DNA from: a virus
Reading direction: 5' to 3' (one strand)
Length of the DNA: 64,000 bases
Virus record (IMG/VR): IMGVR_UViG_3300043313_001040
Location: 1-64,000 of that record
Below are positions 9,043 through 58,391 of this stretch, in pieces; within the stretch, counting starts at the first letter, position 1, and the number at the start of each line of letters is the position of its first letter. The position numbers were made by a program, and so were the translations under genes. Under the pieces are notes generated by a model. The model did no database searches. It had not been told where the DNA came from and saw only the letters and a list, made by a program, of their open reading frames with translations.

Positions 9043-9315
9043 TTATAATATGGCTACCCAATCCCCCTCTGGCCCAAGGCTCTGAATACCCTCGTTGTCC
9101 AGTGGGTATATCGAATGGCCTGACTGGTCATCGCCCAGGTATGGGCCACCATCATCAGGCAGTAATGGCACGTCCTCTGAGGATATGCGATACAGCCTGC
9201 CGCCTGCTCTCAACTGTCGGTAGTGGGCCTTGATCCCTCTACGTCTCAGCTCATTATCGAGATCATCGAACTCAGGTGCATTGCCACCAGGTAGGATGCA
9301 GTATTGATATATCAT
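9043..9315 (-). CDS. hypothetical protein (start trimmed to MIYQY)
   Basis: (CAA)n leader directly before ATG 9315. Confidence 0.6.
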   Translation of the reverse strand: MIYQYCILPGGNAPEFDDLDNELRRRGIKAHYRQLRAGGRLYRISSEDVPLLPDDGGPYLGDDQSGHSIYPLDNEGIQSLGPEGDWVAIL

Positions 9316-9334
9316 GTTGTTGTTGTGTGTGTTG

Positions 9335-9820
9335 TTATTTGTGCTTAGGAAGGAATCGGCCATCAGGCCCATGACCTTCACGTGGGCGCTTCTTGTAGCG
9401 TTCTGGGTGCTTAGCGTTATAACGCTGGTTGTATTCACGCCTCTTTTCAGGATGTGCGCGCATGAACGCTTTGTGGCGTTCAGCACGTATGGCTCGTTGT
9501 TCAGGGCTCATGTTGGCATAGATACGCCTTGCACGAACCCTGTTGGCTTCAGCCAGCTTATCCTTATTGGCATAGTAATAATCTAATGCCTTCTTCTTAC
9601 GCAGGGCATGACGCTCTGCTATCTTCTCTGGTGTGAGCACTGGCTTTGGCTTGGGTGCTGGTGGTAGCTTGGGTTCAAATGGTTTGAACTCAGGCCATGC
9701 ACCATCACGCTGAATCATCTCCTCGTAGACAGGCCCACGTGCACGCTTACGCATGCTCTTACGCAGCCTGTGGCCTTGCTTGGGTGGCTCATGCCACTCA
9801 TCCAGTGTGTATTCTTTCAT
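9335..9820 (-). CDS. basic helical putative DNA-binding protein
   Basis: K/R-rich; YYYANKDKL...HPEKRREYN repeats; C-terminal GPDGRF. Confidence 0.65.
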   Translation of the reverse strand: MKEYTLDEWHEPPKQGHRLRKSMRKRARGPVYEEMIQRDGAWPEFKPFEPKLPPAPKPKPVLTPEKIAERHALRKKKALDYYYANKDKLAEANRVRARRIYANMSPEQRAIRAERHKAFMRAHPEKRREYNQRYNAKHPERYKKRPREGHGPDGRFLPKHK

Positions 9821-9840
9821 AAGTATAACAACCGCCGCGG

Positions 9841-9890
9841 TTTACAAGGAATCTATTCCCGGCTCAGACCCCAGCAGGTCGGCCCCCGTG
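9841..9890 (+). other. candidate cos/packaging-end site
   Basis: intergenic TTTACAAGGAATCTATTCCCGG...GACC-N6-GGTC at a sharp compositional break; loose resemblance to lambda cosQ-cosN. Confidence 0.3.
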
Positions 9891-9925
9891 CTTAGTGCCG
9901 GAGTTTGAAATCCCAAAAATGGGAC

Positions 9926-10231
9926 TCACGAATTACCATAACGTTCCACGAATACTAGAAGACTGGGCCGTTGGAGCGTTTCCAGCAGCTCCGGCGACCG
10001 GAGCGAAACATTGAGATCGGCCGGAACTTCCCCCAGGTCGCGAAGTGGTTTCACGGTCCCGTGCGGAGCGCCGGTATCCCAATGATCTTCCTCGTCGAGG
10101 TAGCGACACCCGAATTTATTCCTGACCCCGATGAAGACTCCTCCTCCTCGGTAAACGGCCAGGCTGAAGTTGCGGGCATCGACCACGTAGAGATGGCGCG
10201 GTTCGCAATCTGGAATTATGATGTGGCTCAT
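9926..10231 (-). CDS. conserved-type phage hypothetical protein
   Basis: ARNFSLAVY...FIGVRNKFG..YLDEEDHWDTGAPHGTVKP. Confidence 0.7.
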   Translation of the reverse strand: MSHIIIPDCEPRHLYVVDARNFSLAVYRGGGVFIGVRNKFGCRYLDEEDHWDTGAPHGTVKPLRDLGEVPADLNVSLRSPELLETLQRPSLLVFVERYGNS

Positions 10232-10416
10232 ATTCCCATCACCTCCTTCAGCAGATTGTCGATCAACGGCGAAGTCCCCGGAACGTAGTGTGCGCTGTCG
10301 CAGATGCTGTCGGCCAGGCCCATCAGCTCGGAGACTGCCCGCTCCCGCGTGATGAACCCCATGGCCAGCATATTTTTGATGACTGCGATGCAGCCAGCGA
10401 TTTGTTCAGGTGTCAT
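10228..10416 (-). CDS. hypothetical protein
   Basis: GGAGG SD. Confidence 0.6.
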   Translation of the reverse strand: MTPEQIAGCIAVIKNMLAMGFITRERAVSELMGLADSICDSAHYVPGTSPLIDNLLKEVMGI

Positions 10417-10417
10417 T

Positions 10418-10642
10418 TTAATTTCCTCCTTCCGGCGAATGAACGCCTTTGTTGTCTTTCTCGATCTGGTCGGCCATAGATCGCAGCATTCTGGGTAGAT
10501 CTTTGACGACCTCGATTGGTGCCTGCACTGAGAAGCCGAACCCCTCAGTTCCGCCCCACACCATTACGGCCGCGCCAAACGCTTTCGTCTGTTCGCGGAC
10601 GTAGGTGCAGAGCCCGTCGTATTTGCCAGGGCCAGCAGCCAT
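10418..10642 (-). CDS. hypothetical protein
   Basis: GPGKYD..CT.VRE motif; coupled start. Confidence 0.65.
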   Translation of the reverse strand: MAAGPGKYDGLCTYVREQTKAFGAAVMVWGGTEGFGFSVQAPIEVVKDLPRMLRSMADQIEKDNKGVHSPEGGN

Positions 10643-10821
10643 TACTCGCCCTCCTTTTTTGCAGCGTGCTGCAAACTATCGTCGTTACCGTCGACTATTG
10701 TTATGGCCTCCAAAAGGGCCTTGAATTTTTCCTCCAGCTCATGAACCCGCTTGTTCAGGTCGAACAATGCGATGAGTGCTATGATGACGAAGGCCAGGAG
10801 CAAGATGACGAGGGCGTCCAT
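10642..10821 (-). CDS. 59-aa N-terminal TM protein (not in ORF track)
   Basis: MDALVILLLAFVIIALIALFDLNKRVHELE...LQHAAKKEGE*. Confidence 0.6.
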   Translation of the reverse strand: MDALVILLLAFVIIALIALFDLNKRVHELEEKFKALLEAITIVDGNDDSLQHAAKKEGE

Positions 10822-49316: not shown

Positions 49317-50141
49317 ATGATCCATTCCAACTCCGTTAAGAACCACAAGATCGAGAACTGGACGTATGCCAATGCGGCAGCACGAACCGGGGCTACAGGT
49401 TTCCTCGCGGCCGACATCGGCAAGCTGGCCTACCAGACCGACAATCAAACCTACTGGAGGTTAACCGCCGTTACGCCTACCTGGATTCAAGCCATGGCGG
49501 GCCCTGCTGGCGCGGACGGCGCGGATGGCGCAGCCGGACCCGGAGTGCCTACCGGTGGAACTGCTGACCAGATCCTCGCAAAGATCGACGGCACTAATTA
49601 CAATACCCACTGGATCGACGCTCCCAGCGGCGGCGGCGGTGCGCTAACGATGCTTGCCAACATGGACGAAACTGGCGGCACCGTTCCCGCCGATGATCCG
49701 GTCGATCACATTGATCTGCTCAGCATTCCTGGCACCGGCAAGAACCTCAGGATCGAAGGGTTCTTCCGGGGTTACGATGTCGATTACACCGACACGCTTG
49801 GCAATTTGCTGCTCTACTTCAACGCCAATTACACGGACAGTGATTACTGGTATGCCACCAACGAGGATGCAGTCCACACCGACGCGAATGGCGCTCCGGT
49901 AGTCGCCAAATCTGGGATCTACGGTGCTCACCACATCCTAATCGAGATCCCAATGTATTCTTCCACGACTGGATTCTCGCCAACCGCATTTGTCCGAAGC
50001 ATATTTGTCGATGCTTCCGGGATGCACAACCGCGAAAGTATCGTGCGCTTTGCGGCTGTAAGCGGCTCGCCCTTGACTCAGCTTCGCCTCAAAACGTCAC
50101 TGTCACGCCTGGAGTTTCACGGTCGAGCATACCTCTTGTAG
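49317..50141 (+). CDS. tail fibre/virion protein
   Basis: GPAGADGADG; GVPTGGTADQILAK..GTNYNTHW. Confidence 0.65.
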   Translation: MIHSNSVKNHKIENWTYANAAARTGATGFLAADIGKLAYQTDNQTYWRLTAVTPTWIQAMAGPAGADGADGAAGPGVPTGGTADQILAKIDGTNYNTHWIDAPSGGGGALTMLANMDETGGTVPADDPVDHIDLLSIPGTGKNLRIEGFFRGYDVDYTDTLGNLLLYFNANYTDSDYWYATNEDAVHTDANGAPVVAKSGIYGAHHILIEIPMYSSTTGFSPTAFVRSIFVDASGMHNRESIVRFAAVSGSPLTQLRLKTSLSRLEFHGRAYLL

Positions 50142-50178
50142 TTTGCAGCACGCTGCAAATTGACACCTGGTCATAGGC

Positions 50179-50547
50179 ATGGCGTCCATCGTTCGTAATT
50201 ACACGGTCGAACGTGGGATTCCGTTCTCCCGTCAGATCACGGTTACTTCAGGTGGCGTCGCGGTCGATCTTACCGGTGCTACCATTGAGGCTCAGGTCCG
50301 CCTGGCCAAGCTGCCAGAAGAATATCGTTATAGGCCGACTGGGACGGGGCCGCTAATCACCAGCTTTGATGTCGACATCCCGATTTATACCGACGGTAAG
50401 TTCACCATCAAGTTGCCGGAAAACAAGACGCTGCTGATGGGTCGCGGTGAATACGACTATGACGTAATTATCACCTTCCCTACTGGAACCAAGAACCGGG
50501 TGTTGGCAGGCATTCTTACTGCCGTGGAGGTTACTACGCATGCCTGA
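50179..50547 (+). CDS. BppU-like virion protein
   Basis: VDLTGATIEAQVR...YDYDV...LAG.L.A. Confidence 0.6.
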   Translation: MASIVRNYTVERGIPFSRQITVTSGGVAVDLTGATIEAQVRLAKLPEEYRYRPTGTGPLITSFDVDIPIYTDGKFTIKLPENKTLLMGRGEYDYDVIITFPTGTKNRVLAGILTAVEVTTHA

Positions 50548-51115
50548 CGATCTTACAATCTCCATCGACGAAGGTCCCATCTCGGAGGTGATCGAAGGCC
50601 CCAGCCAGGATGTCACCGACATCTCCGATCCCATTATTGGGATTGCGGTTGAGAATCCGGCCACCGAAGAGGTCCCCTCTGCGCCACCGGTGGAATCGGT
50701 AACTATTGTCGAGAAAGGCGATCCAGGCCCACCCGGGCCGCCCGGGCCTCCCGGTGGTGGCGGCGGCGGTGGCACAACCGATTACGATACGACGGAGATC
50801 GTAGCGCATGAGGCGATCCCGGCGCTTTCGTTCGTGACCTCGGACGGCAAGATCGCTGATTCGAATAACCCGTTTCATTTCAACAAGGTCATGGGCATTA
50901 CCTTGGTCAGCGTTCCAGTTGACACTGTGGCCACGGTTATAACCGAGGGGGAGGTGACGGATCTTTCTTGGAATTGGACCGCGAATCAAAAACTTTTCCT
51001 CAATGGCACCGCACTCTCACCAATCCCAGTTTCTTCTGGCTTTAGTCAGATGCTCGCTGTGGCCCAGAACTCTCAGACCATCTTTATCCGCGTTCGAACT
51101 CCGATCCGTCTCTAA
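50540..51115 (+). CDS. collagen-repeat virion protein with cement-like C-terminal domain
   Basis: GDPGPPGPPGPPGG; GEVTDLSWNW...LFL. Confidence 0.65.
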   Translation: MPDDLTISIDEGPISEVIEGPSQDVTDISDPIIGIAVENPATEEVPSAPPVESVTIVEKGDPGPPGPPGPPGGGGGGGTTDYDTTEIVAHEAIPALSFVTSDGKIADSNNPFHFNKVMGITLVSVPVDTVATVITEGEVTDLSWNWTANQKLFLNGTALSPIPVSSGFSQMLAVAQNSQTIFIRVRTPIRL

Positions 51116-51120
51116 CTAAT

Positions 51121-51570
51121 ATGGCCACAAGAAAAGCAATCGTTCTCGTTAACGGCGAATTTCAACAGCTCCAGGCTGGAGATACGCTTGCCGGTCCAAT
51201 AGCAGAGGTAGATTTGATTTCGTTGACCAACGGCGAGTCCAGCGCCGCCCTGGCCCTTGGTGACATCGTTTACATTAGCGCGGCCGATACAGTGAAGAAG
51301 GCCAAGGCGGATGCTGCCTCCACTGCTGATGCTTTTGGGATCGCCACGGCTGCCATCGCGGCCGGTGCTGCGGGATACATTCAAACCGCTGGTGTTTTGA
51401 GCGGCCTAACTGGTCTTACGGCTGGCGCAGTCTACTATCTTTCGGCAGCCACGTCCGGATTACTAACGACTACGGCCCCCAGTGCCACAGGGCAAACTGT
51501 AACCCGCGTTGGTAAGGCTATTTCGACGACCGAACTCGAAATCAATATTCAGCGGCCTGTCCTGCTGTAA
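51121..51570 (+). CDS. cement-like (DUF2190-related) virion protein
   Basis: GD.VYIS...KAKAD; GLTAGAVYYLS; VGKAISTTE. Confidence 0.65.
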   Translation: MATRKAIVLVNGEFQQLQAGDTLAGPIAEVDLISLTNGESSAALALGDIVYISAADTVKKAKADAASTADAFGIATAAIAAGAAGYIQTAGVLSGLTGLTAGAVYYLSAATSGLLTTTAPSATGQTVTRVGKAISTTELEINIQRPVLL

Positions 51571-51579
51571 TCCCAGGTC

Positions 51580-53145
51580 ATGGCGAATTACGCCCCCATC
51601 ATCATCAAGAATGGGGAGCTGCAGCAGCTTCAGGCGGCCGACTCGCTTGTTGTTCCAATCCTCAATGCAAATGGTGGAAGCGGCACAAAGACCAATATCC
51701 TGTCGGTTTCCGGACTAGCTTTAACCGATACCGGAGCTGCTTCCTCTTCAGTTAGTTCTACCTTTTCAGCAAGAGCCGCAACTGCAGGGCCTGTTGGAGG
51801 TTTAGTTCTTACCACCTACGGTAATTCGGAAGCCACTCATCCCGGCGAAACCACGCTTAACTTTTTTGGGTCCGGAGCTATCTGCTCAGGATTCGTTATC
51901 GGGTCAAATGCTTATCCCACACACATGCTGGATGTGTATGGGACGGGCTGGTTTCAGAATACTTTGCAGGTAGGGGATGGCACAACCTCTGCCTCGGGCG
52001 AGCTACTATTAAATGGAGTGGCGGCTACAAATGAAGGTCCGTATATCGGCTTTCAAAAATCTGGGTCAACTAAGTGGTATGTCGGCCTCACTTCAAGGGT
52101 GATCGGCGGCACTTCGAATAGCTTTACCTTCTTTAGCCTAGCTAACGGTGAAGTGATGCGCATTGGTGCTGGCGTCAACATCGGCGGCACAACTGATCCC
52201 GGTGCAGGAGGTTTGATTATCGCTGGTAGTAATAGTTACCCCTGTGATATTTCATCATCGAATGCCACTAATGTTATCTCTCGTGTTACTTCAACTAATT
52301 CATCCAGTCTCGCGGCCTTTGATGCTGTTAATAATACCGGGTCTATAGCAGAATTTGGAGTAAGAGGTTCGGCTAGGTCTGCGTATGGCGTCTTAGTGGC
52401 CAACGACGGCTATCTTTACTCCGGTGGGCATTTAACCTTACTTGCTGATGGCTCTGGCGTTATTAAATTCGCTGCCAACGGCAACACTGAGCGAATGCGG
52501 CTTGCCTTGGGACTAAACATCGGCGGCACAACTGACCCCGGCGTGGCGAATTTATATGTTGGGAATAGTTCATCAGGGACGGGAACAAGTCATGGTATTT
52601 TCATGTTTGGTTCAAACCAATCATTTATCCGAATGTATGGGCAGACTCGCAACTGGGGGTTGCTTCAAAACAGTTTAGGGCAAGGAGATTTTGCCATATG
52701 GCAAAGTAACAGTGCCGGAACGGACACTAACGCAACTGGTTCAGACCCCTTTGCTGGAACTATTCGTTTTTTAATCGGGAGTGCCGGAGCAATTCGGTTT
52801 CCTGCTTACGGCGCAGGCACGCTTGTAACGGATTCCAGCGGTAACATTACTGCATCATCGGATGAAGCACTTAAACGAAATATCCGACCATTTACTCGCG
52901 GTCTTAAGTCTCTCTTGGGTCTCAATCCGATTACCTATCAGTGGACAAAGGAATCAGGTATGGACCCTGAAGGCGACTATACTGGGTTTGGCTCCCGTCA
53001 TACTCGGACCTGCATCCCCGAAGCCGTCAGTGAAGACCTGACATTCTCTGATAGACCAATTATCGCAGCCATGGTAAATGCGATAAAGGAACTCAACAAC
53101 CGATTGGAAAAATTTGAACATGCCAACACCAACACCAACGCCTAA
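51580..53145 (+). CDS. tail fibre with C-terminal peptidase S74 intramolecular chaperone
   Basis: SSDEALKRNI...LNPITYQW...GF...IPEAV...AIKELN; internal NIGGTTDPG repeat. Confidence 0.85.
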   Translation: MANYAPIIIKNGELQQLQAADSLVVPILNANGGSGTKTNILSVSGLALTDTGAASSSVSSTFSARAATAGPVGGLVLTTYGNSEATHPGETTLNFFGSGAICSGFVIGSNAYPTHMLDVYGTGWFQNTLQVGDGTTSASGELLLNGVAATNEGPYIGFQKSGSTKWYVGLTSRVIGGTSNSFTFFSLANGEVMRIGAGVNIGGTTDPGAGGLIIAGSNSYPCDISSSNATNVISRVTSTNSSSLAAFDAVNNTGSIAEFGVRGSARSAYGVLVANDGYLYSGGHLTLLADGSGVIKFAANGNTERMRLALGLNIGGTTDPGVANLYVGNSSSGTGTSHGIFMFGSNQSFIRMYGQTRNWGLLQNSLGQGDFAIWQSNSAGTDTNATGSDPFAGTIRFLIGSAGAIRFPAYGAGTLVTDSSGNITASSDEALKRNIRPFTRGLKSLLGLNPITYQWTKESGMDPEGDYTGFGSRHTRTCIPEAVSEDLTFSDRPIIAAMVNAIKELNNRLEKFEHANTNTNA

Positions 53146-53344
53146 AAAAGAAGAACCCAAGATCGACTACTCGGACCCAAAGGTTTTGGACGAACAGATC
53201 GAGATGGCCACGAAAGCCCTGCGTGATATGGAGATGGAGAGTTCTTCTCGTCTGAGCTTTCTGAATGGCAATTTAAATGCCCTGAATCAAATTAAAAAAG
53301 GCCTGGCTGTTATCTTTCGAAAATCTGATGTCGACCAAAAATAA
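53114..53344 (+). CDS. small coiled-coil protein
   Basis: 76-aa ORF between fibre and lysis genes. Confidence 0.6.
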   Translation: MNMPTPTPTPKKEEPKIDYSDPKVLDEQIEMATKALRDMEMESSSRLSFLNGNLNALNQIKKGLAVIFRKSDVDQK

Positions 53345-54137
53345 ATCAGTTCTGGTTATCGAAGATCATCCGGATAGCTGCCAGGTCTTGAAGGAGATGC
53401 TGAAGCGGCGCGGGCTTCATGCCGAGTGCGCCGACACTATCAGAGAAGCCGAGAGCTGCATCATGTTTGCAGAGTCTCAGGGCAAACCGTATTCCTGCAT
53501 TGTATCAGACCTTGGCCTGGGTGATTCCAATGCACTCCAGACGGTTGAGTGGCTTAAAAAAGTCTCCAACAAACTGCCGGTCCGCGCAATCTCCGGAATC
53601 CAGGACCCGGCAGTTATTGAAGCGTGCCGCACCGCCCGGATTCCCCTGATCTTGAAGGGGACAAGCGCTGAAGGCATCATGGAATCGGTGCTCTATGCGA
53701 TTACCGAGCGTGACACGCCTCCAGATAGGGAGATCATAAATATCATAGCTGATAACAGAAAACACCAGCGCGAGGTGCACGATCCTGGGCAACCGGATAG
53801 CGGGCACCGGGATAATGATGGTGCTTTTTCTAGTTGGTCAAAGACTGGGAAAGCGATCACCAAGTTTGGCGTTATTGTCGGAACTCTCACGGCCACTCTG
53901 ACCCTCGGAGCGTGGCTGTATCGAGGACTGGAAGACCGGATTCTCGATGCAGCAAGCACTAAAACCCATCTCGCTTTAATCGACAGCAAAATCTCTGATG
54001 GAGCCGAGCAGCGAAAACAACATGGAGATAAAATCCGCGCCCTGGAAGATAACCGGCTCGAAGTAAATCTGAAGCTGACCTCCATCAACGAAAAGCTTGA
54101 CCACATAGATAAGAAGTTGGATGGTCCATCCAGATGA
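53328..54137 (+). CDS. response-regulator receiver domain fused to TM plus coiled coil (holin/antiholin-like position)
   Basis: VLVIED (E12 D13), IVSD61LGLGD, ISG (S89), LILK110G; TM ~180-198; C-terminal heptads. Confidence 0.8.
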   Translation: MSTKNKSVLVIEDHPDSCQVLKEMLKRRGLHAECADTIREAESCIMFAESQGKPYSCIVSDLGLGDSNALQTVEWLKKVSNKLPVRAISGIQDPAVIEACRTARIPLILKGTSAEGIMESVLYAITERDTPPDREIINIIADNRKHQREVHDPGQPDSGHRDNDGAFSSWSKTGKAITKFGVIVGTLTATLTLGAWLYRGLEDRILDAASTKTHLALIDSKISDGAEQRKQHGDKIRALEDNRLEVNLKLTSINEKLDHIDKKLDGPSR

Positions 54138-54382
54138 ACTGGCGCGTTAACTGGTTCGTGTTTCTTGTTCTCCCATGGCTGATCATCATTCTCGTCTGTT
54201 TGTCGAGCTGCGCTCCGATCAAGCCAAAGACAAATACGCCAGTCCCCTCGCTGACTAAAGCTACCGAGATCAATCGTTCGGTTCGTTCGAACATCGTCGA
54301 CTCGAAGGATGCAATCGGCCGAGCCCGTCGGTTGAACACGGTTATCGACAACAAGCTGAATCTTCTCCGCGATTACAAATGA
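54134..54382 (+). CDS. lipoprotein, o-spanin-like
   Basis: hydrophobic signal plus lipobox LSSC. Confidence 0.6.
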   Translation: MNWRVNWFVFLVLPWLIIILVCLSSCAPIKPKTNTPVPSLTKATEINRSVRSNIVDSKDAIGRARRLNTVIDNKLNLLRDYK

Positions 54383-54813
54383 TCCTGAACAAGAAATGGT
54401 TTCTTATTGCGGTAATCGTCATCGAGCTAATGGCGTTAGCTGCGGCGATGGCGCAGCAGGTTCAGTTGACCAGGGAACAGCTAATCAACCAGATCCAGGA
54501 TAAAGTCCACGAGCAGGAAAAGGAGCTGGAGTTCGCTGAGAAGAAAGCCAAAGAGGCTCGCGACAATTCGGATCGCACCCACGAGGAACTCGGCCGCGCC
54601 CAGGGGCAGATCGACCAGGTTGGCAAAGAGCGAGACGCCTGGCACCAATACGGCGACGATCAGCACGACAAGTGGATGAACGCCGAGACCCGCGTAGCCA
54701 AGGAGCAGGCAGCAGTCCTGCGGCGTAACATCATCATTATCGGATTAGTTTTGCTGATCGGATTATACGTGGTGGCCAAGATCTACTTCAAAGCTCAATT
54801 ACCATTTCTATAA
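54379..54813 (+). CDS. spanin-like coiled-coil membrane protein
   Basis: N-terminal signal/TM, long coiled coil, C-terminal TM. Confidence 0.55.
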   Translation: MILNKKWFLIAVIVIELMALAAAMAQQVQLTREQLINQIQDKVHEQEKELEFAEKKAKEARDNSDRTHEELGRAQGQIDQVGKERDAWHQYGDDQHDKWMNAETRVAKEQAAVLRRNIIIIGLVLLIGLYVVAKIYFKAQLPFL

Positions 54814-54815
54814 CC

Positions 54816-55145
54816 ATGGACTCAGCACCTACCCCTTCAGTGATGCAGCAGCAGAAGAACGTATTCGAGTTCATCACTGACCAGCTCGGCACTAACCCCA
54901 CTGAGTCGAAGAAGTTTCTCATGGCTCTTGTTGGAATCATTGCCATTTTTCTCCAGTTCGTTGTGTCGGCAGTGTTGATGTTCTACCGCACGGACTTGGG
55001 CGCGCACTTGGTTGCGATGTTCACAATCGCCGTCCCATCGCTCGCGGGTATTGTCGCAATCTACCTCGGCGCTCAGGGTGCCGTTGAAGTCAAAGCTAAT
55101 GGGGTGCTCCAGCATCAGGCCCAGGACCTCGCTTCAAAGCTATGA
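54816..55145 (+). CDS. holin (2 TM)
   Basis: SKKFLMALVG...; two TM helices; directly upstream of endolysin. Confidence 0.7.
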   Translation: MDSAPTPSVMQQQKNVFEFITDQLGTNPTESKKFLMALVGIIAIFLQFVVSAVLMFYRTDLGAHLVAMFTIAVPSLAGIVAIYLGAQGAVEVKANGVLQHQAQDLASKL

Positions 55146-55774
55146 GCCCATCGGAAGCTAAGGATAAGATTCGCCAGATCCAGCGCATCCTTGAAGTCAA
55201 AGATGATGGCGACTTTGGAGTCAACAGTAAGCTTGCGCTTTCCAATCTCGATAACATCAGTCGTCAGCTCCCTCAGCCATCAATCGTAACACCGCCACCA
55301 GGGTCTGGAGAGACGCCGGTTGATCCGCGAAGCGAGAAAGCCATCGCCACGTTGCATCCACGGGTCCAGCCAATCGCTCGTCAGTTCGTGAAGCTCACGG
55401 CCGCCAATGGCATCAAGGTTGAGATCACGTCGGGCACCAGGAGTTATGCCGAGCAGCAGGCGCTCTTTGACAAGCACGATGGAACGACCCGTGCTCCGGC
55501 TGGTTATTCGAACCACAACTTCGGTCTCGCCTTCGATGTCACGATGGATGCCGAACCGGACGACACCCTGCAGCCGGTCTGGGAATCACCGCTCTACAAG
55601 AAGCTTGGAGTGCTCGGCAAAAGCCTGGGGCTGACCTGGGGCGGCGACTGGCAAAGCATCGTGGACGAACCGCACTTTGAAGTGCGCCCTCCGTGGGCCA
55701 AAGATTTAAGCGAGACCTCAATGATCTCGGAGCTACGACGACGCCATGCCGCAGGAATCGACGCCTTCGCCTGA
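55142..55774 (+). CDS. endolysin, M15 (L-Ala-D-Glu-type) peptidase with N-terminal PG-binding-like segment
   Basis: SGTRSYAEQ..LF; SNHNFGLAFD; WGGDW...DEPHFE; IQRIL...DGDFG. Confidence 0.9.
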   Translation: MSPSEAKDKIRQIQRILEVKDDGDFGVNSKLALSNLDNISRQLPQPSIVTPPPGSGETPVDPRSEKAIATLHPRVQPIARQFVKLTAANGIKVEITSGTRSYAEQQALFDKHDGTTRAPAGYSNHNFGLAFDVTMDAEPDDTLQPVWESPLYKKLGVLGKSLGLTWGGDWQSIVDEPHFEVRPPWAKDLSETSMISELRRRHAAGIDAFA

Positions 55775-55955
55775 GCCAGTGCCTCAGGAACAGGAAAAGT
55801 TGCAGCGTGCTGCAAAACACGCCTGCGATCTCTGTGGTGAGCCAGCCCTGGTCCATCAGTTCGGTTGCCACTTCTGCCGGGAGTGCGCGGTGAACAACAT
55901 CTCAGTAACCGGTGGATAAGAAAATAAAATTAAAGTTCCCTCTGGCACGGCATGT

Positions 55956-56004
55956 GATTTGTCTTACAGCACCGATGGTGCAATTCTTATAAGTAAGACA
56001 AATC
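55956..56004. promoter_or_regulatory. 12-bp perfect inverted repeat (operator/promoter candidate)
   Basis: GATTTGTCTTAC-N25-GTAAGACAAATC with inner GCACC-GAT-GGTGC. Confidence 0.6.
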
Positions 56005-56076
56005 CTACACCGACCTAACGACTGGTTCATTGGGTCCGATTTGACGGCCTTTGATGTTTCTGAAAAGGTGTCGGTC

Positions 56077-56316
56077 ATGGCCAAACTCGCGCTCCCCAAG
56101 CTTCCAGAGCCACTGCCGGAGACTCTCACCGTCCGGTTCAAGAAGCCGCTAATGCGGGGGATTCTTACCTACACTATTTACTCGGACGTGACGTATAGCC
56201 GTCTCGTCCAGCGTGCCGTCGAGAAAGAGCTTGATCGACTGGCGCGAAAAGATCCCAAGCTCAAAGCCAAACTAGAAAGGGCAATGCAGAATGGAACTAA
56301 CGACAACACCGAGTAA
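56077..56316 (+). CDS. ribbon-helix-helix-like regulator
   Basis: TLTVRF beta plus YSRLVQRAVEKEL helix; first gene of the operon. Confidence 0.55.
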   Translation: MAKLALPKLPEPLPETLTVRFKKPLMRGILTYTIYSDVTYSRLVQRAVEKELDRLARKDPKLKAKLERAMQNGTNDNTE

Positions 56317-57103
56317 CCCCCAGGCAGTAGCAATCTATCAACGGATGCAAGACCCGCTCGACGCCATTACCAAGATGGGCGAGATGTTCGCGTCCAGCGG
56401 CATGTTCGGCTGCACCAAGCGCGAGCAGGGACAGGTGCTCGCACTCGCCTGTCTCGTTCAGGGTAAGGACCCGTTCGAGTTGATGCAGAATTATTACATC
56501 ATCAACGGCTCGCTCTCGATGAAGTCCGTTGCGGTCCTGGCCAACTTCATGAAGGCCGGTGGCAAAGTGAAATGGTTCTCGGCGCTCAATGATGCGAGAG
56601 AGGCCAAGGCTACTTTCTCCATCGGCGATAACACGCTGGAGGAAGCCGTCTACACCATCGACGATGCGAAGACCGAGGGTCTGATCAGTGGTCCCAACAA
56701 GAACAACTGGGCCGTGCGCCCGGCTGACATGCTCAGGGCCCGGCTGATCACCAAGGCTGTTCGCATGATTGCTCCCGGCATCATCATGGGCATGCAGGAA
56801 GAAACTGACGCTGGCAACCAGCCGCCAGTAGACCGCACGCCGCTGCGGGCAACTGTTGAAGAACCGAAGCCACAGGAGGAACCCGAGAAGACGCTTGAAG
56901 ACATCCTGGCGGAGAATGATGTCTCCGAGCAGGACGCTATCAATCTCTGCGTTGATCTGAAGTTTCTCGATCCGGGTGAAACCCTCCGCAATCTGACGCC
57001 TACGGTGCGCAAGCGCATCATGAAAAAGGTCCCAGAGTTCATCGAGAAGGTGAAAGCCTTCAACCAACCGGAGCTACCCGACAATGAATCCGCCGCAAGT
57101 TGA
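56291..57103 (+). CDS. single-strand annealing protein (RecT/Redbeta-like)
   Basis: YIING...; YTIDDAK..GL....NW...P.DMLRAR.ITKAVR...P. Confidence 0.75.
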   Translation: MELTTTPSNPQAVAIYQRMQDPLDAITKMGEMFASSGMFGCTKREQGQVLALACLVQGKDPFELMQNYYIINGSLSMKSVAVLANFMKAGGKVKWFSALNDAREAKATFSIGDNTLEEAVYTIDDAKTEGLISGPNKNNWAVRPADMLRARLITKAVRMIAPGIIMGMQEETDAGNQPPVDRTPLRATVEEPKPQEEPEKTLEDILAENDVSEQDAINLCVDLKFLDPGETLRNLTPTVRKRIMKKVPEFIEKVKAFNQPELPDNESAAS

Positions 57104-57132
57104 TGTCGAGGTAATCTACCGGCCTAACAAAC

Positions 57133-57357
57133 GTGAACGAAGACTTCAATTCATTGCCGACTCCCAACGAGCCGCCGCCGATATTGCCAAAAAGCGAAGC
57201 GCCCGAACCAAAGCCAACCGCGAGAAATATGCCAAGAAATCCAGATGATGAGGAACCCGTGAAAGGTTGCTTCATTCTTTGTCTGACCTGCCTGCTTCTC
57301 TCGCTCGGCGTCTGGAAGCTCGTCGAGTTGATAATAATTTTCTGCCACTGGGTTTAA
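57133..57357 (+). CDS. small TM protein
   Basis: C-terminal hydrophobic helix. Confidence 0.5.
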   Translation: MNEDFNSLPTPNEPPPILPKSEAPEPKPTARNMPRNPDDEEPVKGCFILCLTCLLLSLGVWKLVELIIIFCHWV

Positions 57358-57359
57358 CC

Positions 57360-58391
57360 ATGGCTGACCACCATTCCACCTTTGCACCGTCGTCTCTGCC
57401 GATGTTGGAGCAGTGTCCCTGCTTCGAACGGGCAGAGGACACTTCGTCGACCATTTATCGTGACCGAGGCGTAGAGTTACATCTGGCATTCGAACATCGG
57501 CTGCGCGGCTTCCCGCTCCCACCTGAGACTGTGCTTACCCCGTCCGAGAAGGAGCAGATCGAGTGGGCGGTCGATCACGTGCTTGTAAACATGTCGTCGG
57601 AATTCCCGCTGGAGATCGAGCAGAAGCTCGTCCTCCTGGATGATAACTTCAACGTTATCACCTTCGGGACCGGTGACGTATTAAATGGGCCACAGTTATT
57701 CGATCTGAAGACCGGAGATTACCACAACTACTGGCTGCAGGTTGCCTGCTACGCCCTCATGCAGATGGACCGTATCGAGGCTGATCGAGCCAAGGTCAAC
57801 CTTCTCTTTGTCCGGCATAAGAACGTTCATCAGATCGACGTTACCCGGGAAGAAGCAACCCGGCGCATCAATAAAGTCGTGGCTGCCGTGCTTGACCCGG
57901 ACAAGAAACCCCGGGCTAACCCTTACTGTCGCTGGTGCCGCAAGGTCATGACATGCGAAGCAGTCGTGCACCTTGTCAGTGGAGTCGAGGCTGAGCACTA
58001 CGAGATTCGCGACCCGGAAGCACTCTCCGCTGCGCTGATGGCTGCTAAGACCGTCAAGGAATGGGCCGAGCGCGTGGAGGCCTACGCCAAAGAGTCCGCG
58101 CTGGCCGGGATGGAGATTCCTTTCTTCTATCTCAAGAGTCGGGCCGGTGCCCGAGAGATCATGGACGTAAACAAAGCGTTCGCTCTCTCAGAGTTGCCTG
58201 CCGATTTGTTCCTAACCCTTTGCAACCTGCCGGTCGGTAAGCTGGAGGATGCGATTGCTCAGCATGAAGGAGTAAAGAAATCTGCTGCCAGCAAGATAGT
58301 TAACACACGGCTAAGTGAAGTGATCAAGCGGCGACCGCCGACCGTTCACCTGGCTCCAACCAAAAACGAAGACGAACCAACGGAAAAATAA
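57360..58391 (+). CDS. PD-(D/E)XK exonuclease (DUF2800/Cas4-like); start trimmed
   Basis: HSTFAPSS...CP; RG..LH; FGTGD...DLKTG...QVACYAL; YCRWC...C. Confidence 0.85.
   Translation: MADHHSTFAPSSLPMLEQCPCFERAEDTSSTIYRDRGVELHLAFEHRLRGFPLPPETVLTPSEKEQIEWAVDHVLVNMSSEFPLEIEQKLVLLDDNFNVITFGTGDVLNGPQLFDLKTGDYHNYWLQVACYALMQMDRIEADRAKVNLLFVRHKNVHQIDVTREEATRRINKVVAAVLDPDKKPRANPYCRWCRKVMTCEAVVHLVSGVEAEHYEIRDPEALSAALMAAKTVKEWAERVEAYAKESALAGMEIPFFYLKSRAGAREIMDVNKAFALSELPADLFLTLCNLPVGKLEDAIAQHEGVKKSAASKIVNTRLSEVIKRRPPTVHLAPTKNEDEPTEK

Follow-up and report, generated by a model that had tools for sequence, protein, structure and literature searches.

Lysis and signalling systems of comparable plan

The moment at which a phage lyses its host sets burst size and fitness, and the known controls on lysis timing are intrinsic holin clocks, antiholins and superinfection sensing of the T4 type. 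The stretch of DNA considered here (the window) consists of bases 1–64,000 of the 72,014-bp virus record IMGVR_UViG_3300043313_001040, from an uncultured soil phage; the record has direct terminal repeats and is rated complete. At the head of a group of lysis genes it encodes a 269-residue protein (53328–54137, + strand) in which a CheY-like receiver (REC) domain is followed by a linker, one transmembrane (TM) helix and a coil, and which is called the REC protein below. The chances that it is a phosphorylation-controlled component of lysis, as predicted from its sequence and setting, are put at about even.

Several described lysis proteins share parts of this plan. In the two-component spanins, such as lambda Rz/Rz1, there is also an inner-membrane protein in N-in/C-out orientation (the probable orientation here) with a helical periplasmic domain, and the REC gene likewise lies immediately upstream of, and overlaps, a small lipoprotein gene in a lysis cassette. 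Classical inner-membrane spanins (i-spanins) have few cytoplasmic residues and a periplasmic part of about 130, whereas the REC protein would have some 170 cytoplasmic residues, including the receiver, and a periplasmic part of about 70. It also differs in having no periplasmic Cys and no spanin family match above noise, and in that a related metagenome locus, L004, has its lipoprotein gene at a distance from the REC gene. The T4 holin T and the antiholins RI and RIII resemble it in being single-pass N-in/C-out proteins with soluble domains on both sides of the membrane and signal-dependent timing (the last proposed here). They differ in that there is no sequence or family match, and in that the periplasmic part of the REC protein is a plain helix rather than globular. 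T4 lysis inhibition relies on a separate periplasmic protein to detect the signal; the corresponding sensor here would be the phospho-receiver, on the cytoplasmic side and part of the same polypeptide. XhlA of the Bacillus prophage PBSX (PF10779; phrog_937, “hemolysin”) is another small single-TM coiled-coil protein of lysis cassettes, but there the motif and coil precede the TM helix, the reverse of the order here; the REC protein has no match to PF10779 at E ≤ 0.1.

On the signalling side, the single-domain regulators CheY, DivK, CpdR and Spo0F, whose output is contact with other proteins, share a complete phospho-site, no output domain and no adjacent cognate kinase gene, but here the receiver is tethered to a membrane helix and coil and is phage-encoded within a lysis cluster. 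LytSR control of LrgAB/CidAB also ties two-component signalling to holin-like proteins. That control is transcriptional and chromosomal; in the present protein, receiver and membrane part form one polypeptide. The arrangement is thus one of known parts in a new combination. The sequence-only reading of the window had not recognised it as described, and full-text literature searches agree, with no relevant paper found that links receiver or response-regulator domains to phage lysis, holins or spanins. In a phage N4 paper (PMC12642591), “Receiver domain” is the authors’ name for a region of the pinholin and not for a CheY-like domain.

If the prediction is correct, host two-component or acetyl-phosphate signalling would feed directly into lysis as a new input channel, and a single-pass membrane helix with a periplasmic coil would be a new type of response-regulator output. 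As far as the searches reach, such a principle of lysis control would be absent from print. The system would also be compact, with a single Asp and a single readout, the lysis curve.

The receiver domain and its membrane-coil module

The receiver domain is real, and its phospho-transfer residues are all intact. Pfam and PHROGs were the family-profile libraries used for the window’s proteins. Pfam Response_reg (PF00072) matches residues 8–111 at 39.4 bits (cut-off 30.2, E = 7.7e-10), and the same match appears at 41.4 bits in a six-frame search. Taking Pfam, the structural model, Foldseek and conservation together, the domain extends over residues 8–126 (53349–53705, + strand), with E12/D13, D61, S89 and K110 in place. 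An AlphaFold2 model built with 13 homologues has a canonical (beta-alpha)5 domain at residues 7–126, with predicted local distance difference test (pLDDT) values by block mostly 85–96 and strands (E) and helices (H) in the order E7–11, H15–27, E31–35, H38–50, E57–61, H69–79, E85–89, H94–102, E107–109, H113–126. All of the top matches listed by Foldseek among Protein Data Bank (PDB) structures contain a receiver domain, with E-values from 2.5e-8 downward; ranks 1–10 are one engineered REC-coiled-coil fusion (entry 6oec), and Sln1-type receivers in complex with Hpt proteins are also among them.

The remainder of the protein, on the same strand, consists of a linker (residues 127–179; 53706–53864), the TM helix (residues 180–198; 53865–53921) and a periplasmic helix or coiled coil (residues 199–269; 53922–54134). 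The linker is of low model confidence, particularly at residues 130–171, and has conserved juxtamembrane residues I140, N143, R148 and W170; residues 172–264 are modelled as one uninterrupted long helix. The hydrophobicity of the TM segment is moderate, its Kyte-Doolittle mean of 1.49 falling just under the threshold of 1.5, and a single hydrophobic segment is found at the same place in all 13 close homologues, in most of them stronger than here. The receiver would lie in the cytoplasm and residues 199–269 in the periplasm, because the large N-terminal domain has no signal peptide. In these particulars the sequence-only reading is borne out: it had described an intact receiver with the five residues named above, which are at the positions it gave within a recognisable REC fold, and a linker, one TM helix at about 180–198 and a C-terminal coil, which agree with the model and with the homologues.

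Pfam finds no DNA-binding or enzymatic output domain in the REC protein, and neither Pfam nor PHROGs gives a holin or antiholin family match. The C-terminal 140 residues have no Pfam match, and their best spanin PHROG is the Rz-like phrog_739 (E = 0.18). The best PHROG for the membrane-coil part is phrog_1009, of unknown function (E = 0.0064), and nothing is above noise.

No match to HATPase_c, HisKA or Hpt was found in six-frame searches of the complete 72,014-bp record, while the same searches match 14, 13 and 11 of 14 control genomes; the earlier statement that the window has no histidine kinase therefore extends to the whole phage. The only receiver in the record, also by six-frame searches, is that of the REC gene. 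Since the phage encodes no kinase, any phosphoryl donor must be host-derived.

Conservation within the protein family

A word-indexed search identified 13 proteins of 258–306 residues (the window’s own and 12 others, at 35–64% identity). The family proved sizeable when 1.84 billion representatives were searched with a profile: there were 19,218 matches at E ≤ 0.001, mostly generic receivers, with 16 at E ≤ 1e-30. Among the 150 matches listed, about 38 sequences of some 250–310 residues matched across nearly the whole profile in one stretch. Thirty-five of the 150 were retrieved, being those of roughly 240–310 residues with a near full-length match plus three short ones. The resulting alignment has 44 members (the 13 first matches and 31 of those retrieved); left out were P0023, with a truncated receiver, P0086, truncated N-terminally, and P0033 and P0089, which have no receiver.

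The phospho-site is strongly conserved across this set, in which some sequences have diverged to about 18–20% identity. The sequence-only reading had singled out D61 as the residue whose conservation mattered, and it is invariant in 44 of 44, as are L9, D13 and K110. Position 12 is acidic throughout (E in 36, D in 8), position 89 is S or T in 43, and G90 is likewise found in 43. Within the close subfamily the beta5-alpha5 stretch (residues 110–124; consensus in alignment A1, KGTSAEGIMESVLYA) is almost invariant. At the other end of the protein, a C-terminal tip motif of the form L-D/E-R-I-E-x-K-L/I-D is present in most members; one subfamily, which includes the L004 protein, ends differently.

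The two relatives without a receiver are informative about the membrane-coil part. P0089 (111 residues, E = 6.5e-14) consists of a TM helix and a coil behind a short N-terminus. In P0033 (186 residues, E = 3.6e-23) the receiver is replaced by two additional TM helices, and a juxtamembrane stretch is by eye similar to the linker of the REC protein. The membrane-coil module can thus stand alone, with the receiver as an added cytoplasmic domain. A word search for shorter stand-alone relatives found none. After the family itself, the best profile matches are to receiver domains within proteins of 500–1800 residues, which from their length and the position of the match are probably hybrid kinases.

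By tblastn against the INPHARED phages, the whole REC protein has no match and the receiver alone has one (E = 0.1). Scans of IMG/VR gave 24 pattern matches with alignment A1, none of them confirmed, and nine and eight loci with A2 and A3, in the receiver part only; the three loci found with A1 in GTDB contigs are all generic receivers. Metagenome contigs of the Joint Genome Institute (JGI) yielded 14 loci, of which L004 alone is full length. The genome of another locus, L003, is a Verrucomicrobiota metagenome-assembled genome, and 401 genomes of that phylum were searched with a whole-family profile, six candidates being scored per genome; just two matched at E ≤ 1e-22, both in the receiver only. 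The membrane-coil profile A5 matched none of the same 401, in a search that had no positive control and is hence uninformative.

The coupled lysis genes

The REC gene is the first of five start/stop-coupled genes, followed by those for a lipoprotein, a 144-residue protein, a holin-like protein and an M15 endolysin, all on the + strand. It had been described as the first gene of a lysis module, overlapping the lipoprotein gene, and this is the case: the lipoprotein start overlaps the REC stop as ATGA (4 bp). The lipoprotein (54134–54382, 82 residues) has the lipobox LSSC with Cys26 and a mature part of 57 residues with a Pro-rich start, and is a candidate for an outer-membrane spanin (o-spanin)-like protein. 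The start of the 144-residue protein gene (54379–54813) again overlaps the preceding stop as ATGA. A gap of 2 nt separates its stop from the start of the holin-like gene (54816–55145, 109 residues), whose own stop is overlapped by the endolysin start. The endolysin (55142–55774, 210 residues) is of the Peptidase_M15_4/VanY type (51.8 bits) and matches the endolysin family phrog_2649 (E = 7.5e-27), in keeping with its earlier label; no hydrophobic segment, signal or signal-anchor-release (SAR) type, was detected in it.

The two genes between lipoprotein and endolysin are less clearly assigned. Their labels rest on size, topology and position, because neither has a lysis family match above noise. 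For the 109-residue protein the label of holin is supported by two TM helices and not by any holin family (best holin PHROG, E = 0.61). The 144-residue protein has no lysis family match above noise in Pfam or PHROGs, and tblastn against the INPHARED phages gave no match. It lacks Cys and begins with a signal or TM helix, followed by a coil of about 90 residues and a TM helix at the C-terminus; having hydrophobic helices at each end, the protein called “spanin-like” in the sequence-only reading departs from the classical i-spanin plan. It is possibly an inner-membrane spanin partner or a lysis regulator. The N-terminal helix is followed by AMA-QQ and the C-terminal TM helix is strong, a layout resembling that of a unimolecular spanin without a lipobox, or of an inner-membrane protein with a periplasmic hairpin.

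Relatives and parallel loci

Genomic context is readable for two members of the family, the window and L004, and in both of them there are holin-like, lipoprotein and M15 peptidase genes nearby, so the linkage of homologues to lysis genes on which the sequence-only reading depended is found in 2 of 2 readable loci. The immediate downstream neighbour differs, being the lipoprotein gene in the window and a gene for a two-TM protein in L004. The L004 homologue has 260 residues (Response_reg, 41.3 bits) and by eye appears identical to P0028. It is followed in order by a 95-residue protein with two TM helices, a tail-fibre-like gene (9218–10567), a 47-residue lipoprotein open reading frame (ORF) (10567–10710) and an M15_3 peptidase (48.4 bits), the last two 1.8–1.9 kb downstream of the REC homologue. 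The small ORF, lying between the tail-fibre-like and M15_3 genes, has a perfect lipobox (LTGC) and is the only lipoprotein ORF seen in the locus. It is a candidate o-spanin-like gene, and no i-spanin gene adjoins it. The REC homologue is the one single-pass coil protein seen on the gene strand across the 16 kb of the locus. The endolysin was also used as a route to syntenic loci and gave four of them. In the one inspected, L019, the lysin lies between terminase-like and portal-like ORFs (read by eye), which was of no help.

Receiver domains anchored in another way are also found near lysis genes. From 17 receiver-only loci in IMG/VR, 16 REC ORFs were inspected and three (L024, L032 and L033) have a C-terminal hydrophobic anchor. 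In L024 (6737–9037) the REC-anchor gene is directly upstream of a complete-looking lysis cassette, with genes for DUF7940 (42.1 bits; two TM helices), Phage_lysozyme (122.1 bits; hydrophobic N-terminal segment) and DUF2514 (55.5 bits) proteins, the last from a family of Rz-like spanins. A GH19 enzyme (27.9 bits, cut-off 25.5) is encoded within about 350 bp 3' of the REC-anchor gene in L032. No lysis gene was seen near that of L033 by inspection, without a Pfam scan. L024 and L032 are independent parallels, in which two differently anchored phage REC proteins head lysis clusters. The L024 receiver protein, searched by tblastn against phage records, matches only generic response regulators, many of them in bacterial-looking records.

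The C-terminal tip motif in other phage proteins

An exact scan of IMG/VR for back-translated RLERIEDKLD identified 37 loci (L046–L082) with 35 ORFs, none of them fused to a REC domain. Twelve are small and have a TM helix ahead of the motif, which forms the extreme C-terminus, the same layout as in the membrane-coil module, and the other 23 have the mirror layout, with the motif first and a hydrophobic C-terminus, as in XhlA. All three of the motif-first ORFs scanned match PF10779 below the cut-off (E = 0.0044–0.056), and two of them match phrog_937 (E about 2e-5). Ten of the TM-first loci were inspected and one neighbour from each of five was searched against Pfam: there are lysins at L053 (M15_4) and L071 (Phage_lysozyme), and the neighbours at L047, L070 and L073 matched nothing. 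The L046 ORF and two identical copies are between apparent portal and scaffold genes rather than in a lysis position; others follow tail-fibre-like ORFs or are in the head module (the four loci in these settings are L046, L054, L061 and L062). A comparison of the coil module with the 12 TM-first ORFs as possible homologues aligned just the 25-column motif, a circular result because the ORFs had been chosen by that motif. A second scan, with a motif of QLDRIExKxD type, gave at least 120 loci, none of them a family member. The tip may be a recurrent motif of phage membrane proteins, and is best treated as a lead and not as evidence of homology.

Possible function and alternatives

If the REC protein is a phosphorylation-controlled lysis component, D61 would be phosphorylated by a host histidine kinase or phosphorelay, or by acetyl-phosphate. 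Dimerisation of the receiver would then be altered through its conserved beta5-alpha5 face, the membrane helix and periplasmic coil would shift in oligomeric state, and the conserved tip of the coil would engage or release the envelope proteins encoded alongside. By such a path the timing or completion of lysis would be tied to the host’s phospho-signalling or metabolic state. A broader proposal, that phages have repeatedly recruited a phospho-receiver as an input to lysis, with D61 phosphorylation gating a spanin- or holin-associated membrane coil that reads host physiology or envelope state, is possible, if rather doubtful.

Several observations weigh against a phosphorylation-controlled lysis component. 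AlphaFold2 predicts a linker of about 40–45 residues to be disordered, which makes any simple mechanical link from receiver to membrane helix less plausible. The residue after the receiver Lys is usually P, and in 32 of 44 members K110 is followed by G instead; position 107 is L rather than aromatic in 20 of 44. Matches of the membrane-coil part to holin, antiholin or spanin families do not rise above noise, and genomic context is known for just two of about 40 family clusters.

The leading alternative is a constitutive, structural lysis protein, in which the membrane-coil part is an i-spanin or an XhlA-like holin accessory and the receiver a phosphorylation-independent domain for dimerisation or anchoring. 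Receivers that work independently of phosphorylation exist, and the job of the membrane-coil module must be independent of the REC domain in P0089 and P0033, where it occurs without one. The gene order and lipoprotein overlap also fit a layout of i-spanin then o-spanin, and the complex prediction for coil and lipoprotein, considered below, points weakly the same way. Even so this alternative is unlikely, as all five phospho-transfer positions are kept over 44 diverged sequences, which would not be expected of a pseudo-receiver, and there is no spanin family match above noise. Another alternative is interference with host signalling rather than lysis, in which the protein would be a phosphate sink or decoy in the membrane, draining or reading a host histidine kinase of, for example, an envelope-stress pathway, and placed in a late operon for timing only. 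A host donor is in any case implied by the lack of a phage kinase; the next-best profile matches, in the presumed hybrid kinases of 500–1800 residues, and the structural matches to Sln1-type receivers with Hpt proteins, are in accord with this. What it leaves unexplained are the conserved periplasmic coil and its tip, the start/stop coupling to lysis genes and the repeated finding of lysis cassettes headed by membrane-anchored REC proteins, and it is considered distinctly unlikely.

Least probable of these, and very unlikely, is a membrane factor for tail or virion assembly or for entry, with the REC gene belonging to the preceding tail-fibre module. The gene does follow or interleave with tail-fibre-like genes in both known contexts (51580–53145 in the window, 9218–10567 in L004), and some of the small tip-motif proteins are found after tail-fibre-like ORFs or in the head module, as noted above. 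The start/stop coupling of the REC gene is, however, to the genes downstream of it, a separate 76-residue ORF intervenes between it and the tail-fibre gene, and a cytoplasmic receiver has no obvious role in tail assembly.

The partner of the membrane coil

For a phosphorylation-controlled lysis component, the candidate partners are the lipoprotein and/or the 144-residue protein, in a spanin-like step spanning the periplasm, or the 109-residue protein, through antiholin-like action. There is a slight lean toward the first, based on the i-spanin-like topology, the overlapping lipoprotein gene, the fact that L004 shows no second i-spanin candidate, and a complex prediction. In the latter, two copies of residues 196–269 with the mature lipoprotein scored 0.46, against 0.01 for the best of three controls, a result classed as “weak support” and in a band more often wrong than right. 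Contacts agree between runs to at least 90%, and the partner pLDDT is at least 71. Of 80 solved complexes 58 reach the mark used for such scores, as do 2 of 110 mismatched pairs; at scores of 0.60 or less, those that reach it are only seven of the 80 complexes and both mismatches. Also counting against a spanin-like step are the shortness of the periplasmic part (71 residues), the separation of lipoprotein and REC genes in L004, and the presence of the 144-residue protein as a competing inner-membrane candidate.

A holin regulator is favoured by the leading position of the REC gene in the cassette, by the two-TM gene that directly follows it in L004 and by the parallel of L024, where a REC-anchor protein is found beside a DUF2514 protein. 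In the window the gene for the 269-residue REC protein is three genes upstream of the endolysin gene, to which it is linked through the coupled cluster. Against a holin regulator, two genes separate the REC and holin-like genes of the window, and family profiles recognise no holin. The term “REC-holin/antiholin fusion” used in the sequence-only reading is accordingly not retained: there is no holin or antiholin family match, and an i-spanin-like role fits the topology and the lipoprotein overlap at least equally well.

Surroundings of the cluster

The large terminase of the phage has no more than 27% identity to that of any cultured phage in INPHARED. Near-identical DNA is present in soil metagenome runs, the best of which hold 0.66, 0.42 and 0.26 of sampled words. 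Upstream of the REC gene is a tail-fibre gene (51580–53145) with an S74 chaperone domain (30.2 bits). The 76-residue ORF between them (53114–53344, + strand; TTG start, with an ATG at 53120) begins within the 3' end of the tail-fibre gene and shares its last 17 nt with the start of the REC gene. It has a Pro/Thr-rich start, with no TM segment, family match or relatives found, and its membership in the cassette is uncertain. Downstream of the lysis cluster are RecT-like and exonuclease genes. A scan of 50000–57500 gave promoter counts not above those of shuffled sequence and no convincing internal terminator, and Rfam has no match over 55700–56350.

Contigs from soil metatranscriptomes of two studies are identical to parts of the cluster, namely 54337–54793 (X6) and 54145–54295 and 54320–54470 (X10), which is not proof of transcription; these matches, from 54145 to 54793, are within the lipoprotein and 144-residue protein genes. 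The REC gene is covered by none of the RNA contigs, which is uninformative. Very deep contigs of 31 letters from the RNA runs align to 55896–55930 with two to three differences and are probably an unrelated abundant RNA. Just 3' of the endolysin gene, a 57-residue ORF (55746–55919) has a CxxC...CxxC pattern and is zinc-ribbon-like.

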